A stretch of 59,846 nucleotides of DNA, taken from Euglena gracilis (taxonomy: Eukaryota). Location: contig CP154954.1 in assembly GCA_039621445.1 (NCBI GenBank), positions 6,173,693 to 6,233,538 on the forward strand, read 5' to 3'. Positions 40,101-46,100 of this stretch are shown here, piece after piece. A program made the position numbers and the translations under genes. Every line of letters begins with the position of its first letter. Position 1 is the stretch's first letter. Under the pieces are notes generated by a model. The model ran no database searches. It was not told where the DNA came from and worked only from the letters and a program-made list of their open reading frames with translations.

Positions 40101-43100
40101 ACTCTTGATTGCATTTTCATTCATTGACTCTTTTTTGCATTTTAAACTGAATTTGTTCAGTTCCCTCATTGAAAAGCACAGGCAAAACTTCCAGAAGCTC
40201 AGCAAAAAAGCGGTTGATTTCTGATTCACAAAACTTTTCTCCAAAATAAAACAGGGGGGGTTCAAAGGGACATGTTTTTGCCTCACTGTTCCTGTACCCA
40301 GACGAGGCAGCTGAGTCAAATGATTGACTGATGTTAAAGCACCTATTACCTCCTGTTTTTTCATCAGTGAATTTACCGTTCTCTTTCTCCCTATATGTTG
40401 TAAAAATTTTGCTTTGGGGTTTCTGCATTCAGTCGCCAGGGGGGGGGTTCTACATTGGGGGGGAATTCATATATGGTGGGTGGTACAATCCAGTGCCAAC
40501 CACCACATTTGGCCCAAAACTGGCCACCACCAGTGGCCCCAAACTGGCCCAAAGGTGTGGCCCCAAAACTGGCCCCAAGATGGGGCATCAAAAAAATGGT
40601 TCAAACCATTGTAAAGCAAATCAAAATGACCCAGATTACCATTTCGTTGCAAACAAAATGGACAGACAAACAAAAACCTTCGAGTTTCTGGGAACAGCAA
40701 CAGAAAATCAGAAAATACACAGTCTGGCCAATCCCAACAAAATGGAGCAGTTTAGCATTGACGTGCTCAAATCCAGATAAATATCCTTCCAATAAGTTCA
40801 TTTCACCTCAAGCCACCTCAAAAGTCAACAGCAAGTTGAACTGCTGCAGCAGAAAAGGACCTGCAAATACCACCAGCAAAGAAGCCAGTAAATATTGAAC
40901 ATGACACTTGATCCTGATAACATGCACTTGGTAAGCCTTCCACTTGAACTTGTAACTTGACCCCACCGGGGGCTTTCAGTTCTGGGGCTTTCAGTTCTGT
41001 GCCCTCGCCCCACCACCGTACATATAGCCTGCAGTTCAGTTCTGAGCCATGTGATATGTCAAAAAAAATAGATACATGAGAGTTCATACGAGGACTGAAT
41101 TACAAGGGATATTCGAAGTTCAGTGGACCAGTTTCCGTTGGTTTGGTTGCTGACAAAGTTCGCGTGGTAGGAAACTCCGCAGTTTTCCAGAAAGCTCATT
41201 ACTTCAGATTTTTGAAGCTCTTCACCAAATTACATGATCCACTTCCTACGAAGAGATGATTGCGATTTTATCACCAGACAATTTCGTTATTTTCTCAAGC
41301 TAGCTGCAGTGATTCTGTGAGATTTTTAGACCATCAGATAGCGCTTGAAAAGAGCTTTCAATTAGTGTGCAACAACATAGGTGAAAGCCAAGATTTAGAG
41401 GTGTTCAATCGCGGAAATTAGCACACAAACATAGGTTGAGCAACAGGCTTTGGGCAATCAAAAAACGAACTCAGCAAAATCTCAACTGCAACTTGTTTAT
41501 GATATCTTGGTTTTCCCCTTCCATGCTTTTGAGAAAGATCAATCTGAAATTTGCAACGTCAAACCAAAATTCCCCACGGTCACTCCTAATTACAAACACT
41601 GTATATGCCGCGAGATCCTTTGCACTCGCGGTTGAATATACCAAAGTGGACAGGCTGCCCCATTCCTGAACACGTTGCGGGGATTGATGGAAGATAGAGC
41701 ATCTAGCAAGGCAGTGTGCCATCTCATGTCTGATGGGTTGCACGACCTGTTGGACTCCAAGGTGCAGGCCAAGATGAGAGACTTGCATCCAAGAAGGCCA
41801 GAAGTCATCTGTGTGGATCCCATCTCCAAAGTGTTTCTGTTCCCAAAGGAGGAATCCCCTGATTCCATGGAAGAAGGACGGCCCCAGTGGCAGCCTGAAC
41901 GTTCGCCCGATTGCAGTGGGAAATACCGTCGCCTTGCGGGCAAGTTCGCGGAGCTGCGCACATCTTTGTCTGAGAAGGTAAGGACGCCCAAAACCAACCA
42001 ACCACCTTTCTCCCACCAACTCTCCCCTGACACTCTATCCGCATTCAAGTCGGTCACCATATCCGCAGATTATTTTTTCTTTAGGGATTTCATAAAGTCA
42101 AAGGCGCTGGGGGTGGGCGTCCCAAGCCATCCTCAGCTCCCACAATGGCCTGTGCCGGCATCATTTTGGCTGTGGGAAACAAGAAATTAACAATGAAAAA
42201 AACGCAATTTTCCTCACCAGGGGGCCACTTCAACTTCCTACACCTCCCCTCCACACCAACCCTCTCAACGGCACGCCTCCAGGAATCGCCTTTGAATAAC
42301 GGACACACCACCAGCACTTACCAACCCCAACCAACTGACCAAAAATGTCAAAACCAATCTCAGATCTTCTCAAGGCTAAGGCAAAATCCCAAGCTGAATT
42401 TGCGCCAATTGCAAAATGAAAACCTGATGAGCACAAGTTAAAGAGGACAGGTGCGGAATCAACTGCTGAAAATGTGCGTTCTGCAATTGAGTCAAAAAGG
42501 AGCCTTGAAGCGAAGAAGGCAGCTCGTCTAAGGGCTGAAAAGCAGCATGAAGAAAATATCCAAGCCGCAGAAGAAATGGAGAGAAAAATGCAGGATAGCC
42601 ACTGCTCCGCCAGTGAAGGGTGATGAATCGTATGGTGAAGTCGATCTGGAGTCCTACATTGGGTAGGATTCAACAAGCAGAAGACTTCCGAGAACACTTA
42701 CAGAGTCCAGCTTCACGAGATCGGCAAGAATTTAATTGGAGAAATGATACAACGCCAGGCGTATTTCCAACCGCATCACTCATCAGGCCAATATCCCACG
42801 GCGTAGAGCCGGAAGACCTCAGTTTGTGCGCGTCACAGATTGCAAGAATAATCGAACTTCTGATCCCTGAACTGCAAGTGGCGATTGAAATGATTAAAAC
42901 AACCGCCAGACAAGTGAATGACATGATGAGAGAGTAAATGGAACATTTTGCTTCCCACACCTCACAATTCTTTCATTTCATAGGAGAATTTGAAAACGTG
43001 GCACGTTTTTACTACAATCCTGAAGGGTGCATTGAAATGTGTGGATCGCTCTCCCAAATCCAGTCACTGAAGACTTTCTTGAAGAACATCCCAGTGACAG

Positions 43101-46100
43101 GTCTCAACTCAAAACAAGTGAACGTCAGGACGAAAGGATCATTCACAGACATATGCAGGATGGTTGTCGATGCCGGGTTCACTGCCCCATTGTTGCATTA
43201 CAACCCACCATCGATCCTGCAGGTGTCAGAAATCTCGCAAGTTCCATCATCAATCTCAGACCCGAGCGATTTGTGTTCATCGCAAGCTTGACAGCGTTCC
43301 CTAAGTCTTCCACGTTTTGGGAATGGCTTCAAGACAGAAGACACCTACTGGTCATCGGCACATCACACACAGACAACCCCAGGCCCCCTAGGCTTATTGT
43401 TGTTGCAACAGGTCAACGTGACCTCCAGACAGTTTCCCCAAACTTCATGGATCAGCCTTCAACCCTGATGCCCTCCTTTCAGAAACAGCCCTCCAGGAGT
43501 CAAGCAGAGGCATCAGCATCGTATTTTGCGAGTGCCTTGAGCGGGCACTGTCTCTCCGAGTCGGATGTTTTCTTCAACCTTTGCACGATGACCAAAGAGT
43601 CATCCCAGCTGATACTGGAAAAGAACCTAAGGCTACAAGCTTCATCAGAGAGGATTCGCCGTGAACGGGAAAAGAAGGAGAGAGCTGCAAGGAGAGAGAT
43701 GGAAAAAGCAAAAGATGTGGAGATGAAGAAGGCAGAGGTGGACTCAATCAGAAGCTACATCGACGCACTCACGCGACAAGCGCAGGGGAAGCTCACGAAG
43801 GTTGGTTTTGGTTCCTCATCCTCTTTGGAAATGTCCAAGCAACACTCCTCTCTATCAAAGAAAAAGATGAAGAACTCAAAGTGAAGGCAGCCGAGTTGCA
43901 AGAAATGGAAGCGACTGGCGTGGAAGAAGAGGACTATGAATCAGATGAGTAAGAAGTGTCCATAAAGTCCCTGTTGGCGACAAAGATGTCATCGACTGAT
44001 CTATCGAGCTATCAAGAGAAGATCGAGGAGGTGACGGAAGTGAATGCCGCGTTGAAGGAAAGACTGGCATCTCTTCCTGAAACGAGACCTGACATCAGGA
44101 AGTTGGGGTCCGAATTTGAAGCGGAGCTGGTGAAGAGAAATACGACCGCGTCAAGGATCTCGAAGGCAATCGAGTTTTTTGAGTTGGTAAATAAGCAGGC
44201 TCAAGATGGGTCAAAAGGAAAAAACGCTGAATTGGTTGCGACTTTGAATGGTGACATCGACTTGCTCAGGAAAATTCTCGTTGATTGATTTGACCTTCTC
44301 ATTGTACTAGGTTAGTGAAATGGGGGTCCTGGTTGAAACTGTTGGGGTGCACCATCCCTGGGGTTTGGAAAACGCGAATGAAAATACAAAGTGACAGTTC
44401 ACGTGCAAAGGACCACACCGTCAGCCAGTTGCCAATACGCCATAACGCAACCCCTGCCAGAGAACAGGGTGGCCACAATCGCCATATACCGCTTGCCAGA
44501 CAGTTGGAGCTCCGCCTGTTGCGAGGGAATCGTGGGCGGCACACCAGCAGTGGCCAAAACAGGTCTGGAGGGGGGGCACCAAAGGTTCAGAATTTTGCCA
44601 CTTGCAAGGAGCTGGCAGTGGTGGGGAGCGGGAGATCGGGATATTAATGAAAAATCCACAGGAAAACCAGCAAAAAAAAAAAACTTCCATAATTTGGCAA
44701 AACCGAGTTGACATTGGTGGGAAAAGTGATTTCTTGCGCCTCTGGACCATCGCCCGTCAGCTAAAAACGTCAAGCCCAGGTTTTTCTTTTTGGTTTTTGG
44801 ACACAAAATGAGGAGCCGGGAGCCGGAGACTGCAGTGCATCCCACTCTGGGGTGTGGAGGGAGGTGTACACGTCCCGGATTTCCGCAACGGGGTGTTGCT
44901 GATGGCAGGGGGCCGCAAAGAAAAGAGGCCGATCGCTTTGTAGTGTGATGGCAATGTGAAATATTGTGTTTAACAGCTGAGCATTTGCGCTCGAATTCTG
45001 ATTTGCAGGCACACGCACACCCACAGACATGCGTACAAATGCACACCCACACCACCACATTACGCGCGCGCGCGCGCGCGCGCGCGCACACACACACACA
45101 CACACACACACACACACACACACACACACACACACACACACACACACACACACACACACACACACACACACACACACACACACACACACACACACACACA
45201 CACACACACACACACACATGCACGCACACACGCATGCATTTGGATGTCAGCCACTTTGGTGGGACATGATGGCAGTCCTCTGGATTAGCTGGGATGCTGA
45301 TGCAAGTGCAGCCTGATGCAGCGCAGTCAGCCCCCAAAATGCCACCGTTGGGGTCGGGCAACCCACAGGAAGTCCATCTCGTCCATGGGGGTCACGGAGG
45401 GGAGGTCTGGAAACCCACCCCTCCTTGGAAGAATTTTTTAGGACCCAGACCCAACCACAGGGGGGAGGGAGGCTCTGGCGAACCCACTTTGGTGGGTGGG
45501 GAGGGTCAAAATTCTTGAGTGCTTCCACTCCAAATAGAGGGAAACCTGCCTCCGGGGGCAGCGAGGCCAGGCCCGCCCACCCACCCTCCCTCCCTCCCTC
45601 CCCGGGTCAGGCCATTGCTTAAGGGTTTGCAGCACCCCAAACCCAGGGGGGGAGCTGGACTGCAGCTGGTCCAGATTTGGAAATCCCAGTGGACCCCCAG
45701 GGGGGTCTGCTAACACAGCCAGCTGAGTGGAAAAAATATTTTCCATTAACCGGCGCGAAACCGGTTTTTGACCCCCAAAAACTGGCCGAAAATGGCCATT
45801 ATTGGCCATTTATGGGCTTCTTTAAAGAACAAAATCAGCAGGAAAAAAACATTAAAACCCTCTTTTCTGAGTCGGCGCACAGCGGCGGAAATTTTTTATT
45901 CAGTCGGGGGACTCCCGGACCCCTCCCCCCCGGAGGTGTAGCAAGTGGCTTTTTTCGGTGTCTAGCAAATTGGCCAGCCAGTGGACCCCCCCAAGGTCCT
46001 TGAGCAATGGCCTGCCCCGGGTCACCAAACAAAACCAAACCTAATAATAATCTCTGGTTCCAGGTTCAGATCTCAAACTCCGGACTCTGTCACCCATGGA

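Follow-up and report, generated by a model that had tools for sequence, protein, structure and literature searches.

The nonconventional introns of euglenids lack GT-AG borders and follow a published signature of complementary triplets at defined spacings (5′-N3-CDG ... CH′G-N5-6, then R; PMC12501133). Endogenous viral elements, which include the giant-virus insertions reported in Euglena gracilis (PMC12455990), are foreign-looking in composition, intronless and eroded by frameshifts and host repeats. Here we report a locus that shares traits with both, found in a window of 59,846 nucleotides (nt) of E. gracilis DNA (assembly GCA_039621445.1, contig CP154954.1, positions 6,173,693 to 6,233,538, forward strand; all coordinates below count from the first letter of this window). 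A first-pass annotation had proposed that positions 41050-44300 form a foreign-looking, intronless insert with two decayed open reading frames (ORFs), possibly of viral origin, in an intron of a cyclase gene. Our analysis showed that the second of these frames (ORF2, 42345-44290, plus strand) is coding-derived, broken, single-copy, intronic and without a detectable relative. Unlike the described endogenous viral elements, it has neither viral similarity nor hallmarks, measures ~2 kb and lies inside an ordinary host gene. It also resembles a pseudogene, unitary or processed, in antisense orientation within an intron of another gene, being intronless, frame-broken, silent, single-copy and passively carried, but it has no detectable parent or ortholog, no 5′ spliced leader (SL) and no poly(A) after its stop. 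A limited literature search on Euglena introns, the genome and transposable or endogenous viral elements turned up no published account of such a locus.

ORF2 as a broken, single-copy coding sequence without detectable relatives

ORF2 comprises ~648 codons tiled by open frames, from an ATG at 42345, two codons past a stop, to a TGA at 44288-44290, and reading through it requires three in-frame stops and three frame changes to be passed. When it is read in frame 0, a TGA follows codon 24 (42417-42419). The first frame change, from frame 0 to frame 2, falls within 42614-42623 (at 42617-42620, where the two frames share just 4 nt) and is followed by an in-frame TAA at 42935-42937. According to the ORF list, the second change must lie within 43036-43291, where frames 2 and 1 overlap as open frames, and the third within 43665-43884, where the same holds for frames 1 and 0; the last break is a TAA at 43950-43952. 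The frame changes within 42617-43884 are all of the -1 kind, like net 1-nt deletions, a regularity that is not significant with n = 3.

The coding origin of this stretch is apparent from two kinds of shuffle test. The longest ORF2 frame measures 282 amino acids (aa), compared with 114 ± 27 in dinucleotide shuffles (reached by 1 of 500), and the five longest frames sum to 711, against 428 ± 56 (0 of 500). The second test, which is independent of frame length, compared base usage by codon position with that of the six longest ORFs of the shuffles, and yielded a chi-square of 47.7 versus 9.5 ± 5.2 (0 of 300 shuffles), with G occupying fractions of 0.31, 0.17 and 0.26 at codon positions 1, 2 and 3. 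The pooled version of this test included one 67-codon piece that was one base out of frame, the only effect of which is a weakening of the signal. Intron controls displayed no periodicity (p 0.54-0.70), and the opposite (minus) strand of the ORF2 DNA was ordinary, its codon-position signal being reached by 17 of 200 shuffles.

The breaks are present in independent material. In X14, an independent DNA run available as short-read contigs with depth, the contigs 42157-43291 and 43350-45050 carry identical letters, with 0 other letters. The X14 depth over 42284-44300 is 41.6-65.3 (41.6-47.5 except for one bin), compared with 37-57 in the unique flanks, so that the copy-number check suggested by the first-pass annotation identifies ORF2 as single-copy; blastn and tblastn found no second copy of it inside the 60-kb window. 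Sampled words from the region were present, at a fraction of at least 0.95, in 15 DNA runs, and both borders of the 41050-44300 block are spanned by X14 contigs without differences (40789-41188 on the left; 43350-45050 on the right, with one 1-nt gap at 44672). These 15 runs and the border-spanning contigs rule against a misassembly, as the proposed junction check was meant to establish. The remnant thus has one copy per genome and is fixed across all DNA data sets examined. An X14 contig (depth 19 of ~41-65) omits 31 nt at 43289-43321, which does not restore the frame and may represent an allelic deletion within the relic.

Modelling of the product with AlphaFold2 (single sequence, no alignment) gave mean predicted local distance difference test (pLDDT) values of 45.9 and 51.7 for two models. 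The sole confident part was a long coiled-coil-like helix rich in E, K and R, encoded by 43594-43800 on the plus strand (residues 132-200 of model P0003), with block-mean pLDDT of 71-96 over residues 141-200.

Searches for relatives were uniformly unproductive. An exhaustive phmmer comparison of the 43036-43884 frame with 1.84 billion protein representatives returned only the self-match, whose 90% cluster has 3 unnamed members, all of them from Logan contigs. Pfam searches with seven frame pieces gave two below-cut-off matches attributable to coiled-coil noise (FAM110_C, E 0.012; CREPT, E 0.0042), and a six-frame Pfam search of the whole intron that holds ORF2 (39544-44458) gave a single noise match of the same kind (E 0.99), in keeping with the initial statement that no transposase, reverse transcriptase or cellular motif is recognizable. 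No Pfam match was obtained for the other large ORFs of the window either, which are low-complexity artefacts. No family matched in PHROGs, no relative was found in IMG/VR for three pieces, or in the JGI metagenomes, and the ESM Atlas had no usable match for 43036-43884 or 42617-42934. The recognition scores from a protein language model were low (1955 and 1396). Among PDB sequences, P0001 had 0 matches and P0003 only two ulvan lyase chains (E ~0.5), taken as noise. A word-index protein search, confined to targets of 0.55-1.75 times the query length, listed 59 candidates for P0001, none of which scored.

The container intron, its host gene and expression

The entire finding is held by a nonconventional intron of 4,915 nt (39544-44458, minus strand). 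It is defined by the RNA joint 39543->44459, supported by a contig of depth 88 from the run X16 and by reads from X21 (1) and X24 (3), and it lacks GT-AG borders, its plus-strand ends being GG..CC. Two further RNA joints (44531->44822 and 44900->45286) delimit its neighbours. On the minus strand all three introns have the layout N3, triplet ... complementary triplet, N5 and a purine-initial exon, with the triplet pairs CAG/CTG (44901-45285), CGG/CCG (44532-44821) and AGG/CCT (39544-44458); on the plus strand the layout fits none of the three. The three introns therefore resemble the euglenid nonconventional type in being spliced out without GT-AG borders and in carrying complementary triplets at matching spacings. 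The two neighbours agree with it exactly, but the AGG/CCT pair of the 4.9-kb intron lies outside the published CDG/CHG signature (PMC12501133).

The exon downstream of the container intron in the minus-strand sense (39451-39543, 93 nt) is bounded by the joint and a loose end and is joined to 38789-38808; the upstream exon (44459-44531, 73 nt) lies between the joints 39543->44459 and 44531->44822. Together with 38789-38808 (20 nt) and 44822-44900 (79 nt), they show a host gene cut into tiny exons, between which the nonconventional introns range from 290 to 4,915 nt. The minus-strand frame stays open through the four short exons, with a G+C content at third codon positions (GC3) of 0.71. An X16 contig chain runs from 44900 to 39451, continues through 38808-38789 and ends in 10 matching letters at 36268-36277, which lie on the same strand as several exons with cyclase similarity and ~1 kb away from the first of these.

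These exons match, in order along the minus strand, the catalytic domain of the GRESAG4 receptor-type (class III) adenylate cyclases of trypanosomatids (1fx2, 1fx4). In a phmmer search against PDB, the first exon (35104-35292) matched residues 1-37 of 1fx4 (GRESAG 4.3) with E 7.2e-6 and a second piece (33398-33826) matched residues 58-101 of the same chain with E 0.0082, whereas a third piece (31243-31683) is assigned by a match to positions 127-155 of Pfam PF00211 that remains under the curated cut-off (E 0.069). A six-frame Pfam search of 28-36 kb with stops written as X found nothing at E 0.01, which we attribute to exon pieces that are too short. Single exons likewise had no Pfam match, although they did match PDB cyclases. 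Unlike its trypanosomatid counterparts, the euglenid domain is split by long introns, and the N-terminal part of the gene has no homology match. By position and strand, the container intron would belong to this GRESAG4-like cyclase gene. Thus, the earlier placement in a cyclase intron was right as to the intron, which RNA joints establish, and is plausible as to the cyclase, given position and strand. As the intron layout fits the minus strand only, which is the strand of the cyclase exons, the relic is antisense to its host gene. The strand was settled through intron borders and coding frames; the few X21 and X24 reads disagree in direction. Further upstream in the gene, the intron 44901-45285 contains a (CG)12 and then (CA)72 microsatellite at 45062-45238.

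No expression of ORF2 in its own right was seen. Raw RNA depth was 0 in all bins of 42284-44074 in X21 and X24, and no joint inside the 41050-44300 block was found in the three RNA or RNA-guessed runs (X16, X21 and X24), which upholds the original description of the block as free of introns. The X16 contigs within the block, at a depth of 2-6.6, run colinear with the DNA and pass through three of the six breaks without splicing; for example, the contig 42867-43118 is colinear across the TAA at 42935-42937, and the contig 43803-43960 is colinear in the region of the third frame change. Such a pattern would be expected from pre-mRNA or from DNA carry-over. A GT at 43801 cannot mend the frame, since the AGs downstream of it give only lengths divisible by 3. 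A variant genetic code is likewise rejected, because the breaks include two types of stop (one TGA and two TAA) as well as three frame changes. A candidate canonical GT-AG intron at 41978-42084, outside ORF2, was discarded, as the X16 contig 41848-42001 runs into it unspliced.

The compositional block, the ORF1 frame and the adjacent repeats

The block from 41050 to 44300, the right border of which is the end of ORF2, is a genuine compositional outlier. The whole window contains 434 runs of at least five G or C (7.4 per kb), compared with 3 inside the block, a count that equals the minimum over all sliding windows of 3,251 nt (median 23). Tandem Repeats Finder reported no tandem repeat at all between 40999 and 45062, and GC3 in the open frames of the block is 0.42-0.57, against 0.65-0.78 in four host exon sets of the same window. 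The scarcity of G/C homopolymers, the absence of microsatellites and the lack of GC3 bias noted in the first-pass annotation were all reproduced. Its A-rich coding strand proved not to be a distinguishing mark, as AT skew is positive across most of 15-50 kb and the plus-strand A-richness of the block is unexceptional.

On the other hand, the block is not uniform. Two of its three G-runs (G5 at 42109 and 42220) fall in the bin 42085-42283, in the spacer between ORF1 and ORF2, where X14 depth climbs from a baseline of 40-50 to 3,145. The bin contains a short host repeat of high copy number, and it shows a loose end (42119) as well as contig breaks (42157-42169). Depth is also raised, to 106-160 (2-4 times the baseline), over 41488-41885. 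X14 contigs break at 41472 and 41791, and 41488-41885, which includes part of ORF1, seems to exist as a few near-identical copies or alleles elsewhere. Terminal repeats or a target-site duplication were not found around the block beyond short, low-identity two-copy matches of chance size.

The first of the two proposed frames, ORF1 (41636-42190, plus strand, 184 codons), has no coding signal in the shuffle tests. Its codon-position bias was reached by 51 of 200 and 183 of 200 shuffles on the two strands, and the opposite strand is itself open across it, with frames of 187 and 159 codons. Word-index protein searches with the same length limits gave 25 candidates for the plus strand and 45 for the minus strand, none of which scored, and Pfam had no family for it. 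Judged from its sequence, ORF1 is probably not a gene. The reported arrangement of two decayed head-to-tail ORFs ~155 nt apart therefore holds for the spacing (154 nt) and for ORF2, and fails as a two-ORF architecture, since only ORF2 looks coding.

At its left border the clean block begins at the SL-like 5′ end of a degenerate element resembling SL RNA (40876-41081, minus strand). Its SL-like alignment (41081-41061, minus) scores 14, exceeding 100 of 100 shuffles, and the element is colinear with an SL-led sequence at 58259-58397 (66% identity over 111 columns, E 1e-5). At 41072 an X14 contig parts from the window sequence and continues as the complement of the 5′ part of the canonical SL. 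The second locus, at 58252-58275, differs from the Eutreptiella spliced leader by 2 mismatches over 24 nt (PMC3621762). There, behind the SL sequence, 58249-58340 (plus strand) has a GC-rich palindrome and then a U-rich stretch, and the only ATG frame after the leader is 4 codons long; these features suggest an SL-RNA gene or pseudogene more than a retrocopy of an mRNA. This leader match, the RNA-proven introns without GT-AG borders and the cyclase exons together identify the window as nuclear DNA of a euglenid. No Rfam family reaches its gathering score anywhere in the window, and relaxing the threshold to E 0.1 for 40400-44500 and to E 1 for the SL-like locus brought up no match. Close to the end of the window, positions 59008-59840 consist of 833 N.

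The same intron holds a very high-copy repeat at 40493-40890 (X14 depth of 9,857 and 1,248, compared with 40-50), within which a 25-nt tandem array occupies 40513-40593. The agreement of RNA contigs and reads with it is limited to 40784-40818, beyond which they continue into other sequence, so that this piece of the repeat is also part of other transcripts.

Origin of the relic

Overall, ORF2 is probably a dead and passively carried coding relic, from a donor that the data do not single out. We favor this interpretation because a transposon, a retrocopy, a live gene and chance are each disfavored by the evidence, and a foreign donor is without positive evidence. The stretch 42345-44290 would then be the decayed remnant of one intronless gene of ~650 codons, whose product would have begun with a charged helical part, followed by ~330 residues without a recognizable fold and a long coiled-coil-like tail. 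It may have entered the intron as a single piece of DNA or cDNA, subsequently decayed and been invaded by a host repeat, with ORF1 being either open by chance or a non-coding flank. If transcribed at all, the relic would be so only within host pre-mRNA, and would be removed with the intron.

Two of the competing explanations invoke a mobile invader. We consider it unlikely that ORF2 is an endogenous viral element, that is, the integrated and decayed piece of an unsampled virus such as a giant-virus ORFan or structural gene. Such an origin would suit a frame that is intronless amid local host exons of 20-93 nt, has GC3 of 0.42-0.57 below the 0.65-0.78 of the host, is poor in the G/C runs that abound in host non-coding sequence, and lacks a host parent gene in the exhaustive phmmer search; giant-virus insertions, reported to be methylated, are moreover on record in E. 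gracilis (PMC12455990). The embedding in host chromosomal DNA, with junctions confirmed by X14 contigs and 15 DNA runs, is likewise as it should be. However, the six frames of the whole intron contain no hallmark (polymerase, capsid or packaging ATPase) and no Pfam domain of any kind, and PHROGs, IMG/VR (three pieces), the JGI metagenomes and the 1.84 billion representatives, a set that should hold the ORFs of same-genome giant-virus insertions if these were related, all lack a relative. In addition, the piece is single and gene-sized, neighboring viral genes are absent, and a coiled-coil protein is diagnostic of nothing. Viral ORFans are common, and for this reason a viral origin retains a small likelihood even though unsupported. 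An improbable alternative is the remnant of a transposable element, in which ORF2 would have encoded a poorly conserved coiled-coil protein (gag-like or LINE-ORF1p-like) and the enzymatic ORF would have been deleted; the family would have been of low copy number and now extinct. It would agree with an antisense position in an intron amid repeats (depth 1,248-9,857 at 40493-40890 and 3,145 at 42085-42283), with the 2-4-fold depth at 41488-41885 and with the frequent absence of detectable homologs for the coiled-coil accessory proteins of retroelements. Against it, ORF2 itself is at the single-copy baseline, has no diverged protein copies by exhaustive phmmer, stands alone in the 60-kb window according to blastn and tblastn, and is accompanied neither by a remnant of reverse transcriptase, integrase or transposase in the six frames of 39544-44458 nor by terminal direct or inverted repeats or a target-site duplication beyond chance-sized matches. 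The viral or mobile-element inference of the first-pass annotation is thus left in an ambiguous position: a host parent gene, a known transposable element and a misassembly, the outcomes that it named as fatal, were looked for and not found, but every test in its support came back empty and the architecture is not that of two ORFs.

The remaining explanations are of host or accidental origin. A retrocopy would share with ORF2 the lack of introns (no RNA joint in 41050-44300, contiguous frames), but the exhaustive phmmer search produced no parent gene beyond the self-match, the spliced-leader score on the plus strand (9) is that of shuffled sequence (mean 8.6), and no A-run follows the stop. 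It is very improbable that ORF2 is a live nested gene, the breaks of which would be hidden in small nonconventional introns and which would give an intact plus-strand coiled-coil protein in unsampled conditions. In favor of such a gene, most Euglena introns are nonconventional (71.8% in E. agilis; PMC12501133), the coding signal remains strong and the RNA sampling was shallow. Nevertheless, introns would be needed at all six separate breaks, and the three RNA or RNA-guessed runs have no joint within the block; X16 contigs are colinear over 42417-42419, 42935-42937, 43800-43841 and 43950-43952, raw-read depth is 0 over 42284-44074, and neither a spliced-leader acceptor context nor an SL-bearing product was seen. 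Hardly any credence is due to the proposal that the open frames are accidents of a clean, repeat-free intron stretch that never coded. The window does contain 187 stop-free stretches of at least 110 aa in all frames, of which ORF1, open on both strands without a coding signal, is one, and both the zero homologs and the low language-model scores (1955 and 1396) would be expected of such an accident. Yet neither the frame tiling (0 of 500) nor the codon-position bias (0 of 300) of ORF2 was attained by shuffles, and its minus strand is unremarkable (17 of 200), as are the aperiodic intron controls.

Several points weigh against a dead relic as we describe it, or narrow its basis. The exhaustive phmmer search covered 43036-43884 only, the rest of ORF2 having been searched by word-index, Pfam, PDB and Atlas, and the DNA-level evidence on copies is blind to those diverged beyond 95% identity and to orthologous loci. 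The link between the flanking exons and the catalytic exons comes from position and strand, not from one transcript. Silence is only weakly shown because RNA sampling was thin (16 and 11 reads, from ~5-6% of two runs), to the extent that even the flanking exons reach just 0.3-1.1x in X21 and X24, and X16 is taken as RNA by guess only. Finally, the lower GC3, the lack of introns next to local exons of 20-93 nt and the lack of a parent gene lean towards a non-native donor, as the first-pass annotation had proposed.

With respect to the donor of the relic, we would place a cellular or retroposed gene, now lost or not yet sampled, somewhat ahead of a virus or a transposon in likelihood. There is a slight chance that ORF2 is all that survives of a gene contributed by an unsampled donor, e.g. 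a euglenid virus unrelated to the known giant-virus insertions or another horizontal source. If such a donor gene was captured in the cyclase intron, the ORF2 protein family would be new to all current databases.

As it stands, the significance of the locus is modest, that of one more dead orphan ORF of little weight in a repeat-rich protist genome. It also serves as a caution that a foreign look combined with a lack of homologs does not amount to evidence for a virus. For the biology of euglenid introns, it provides an RNA-verified nonconventional intron of 4.9 kb whose pairing triplets are AGG/CCT and which accommodates a large payload of foreign appearance. The presence or absence of this payload at the orthologous intron of sister euglenids would date the insertion, and, if the donor were ever found, the locus would become a documented case of gene capture into a euglenid intron.

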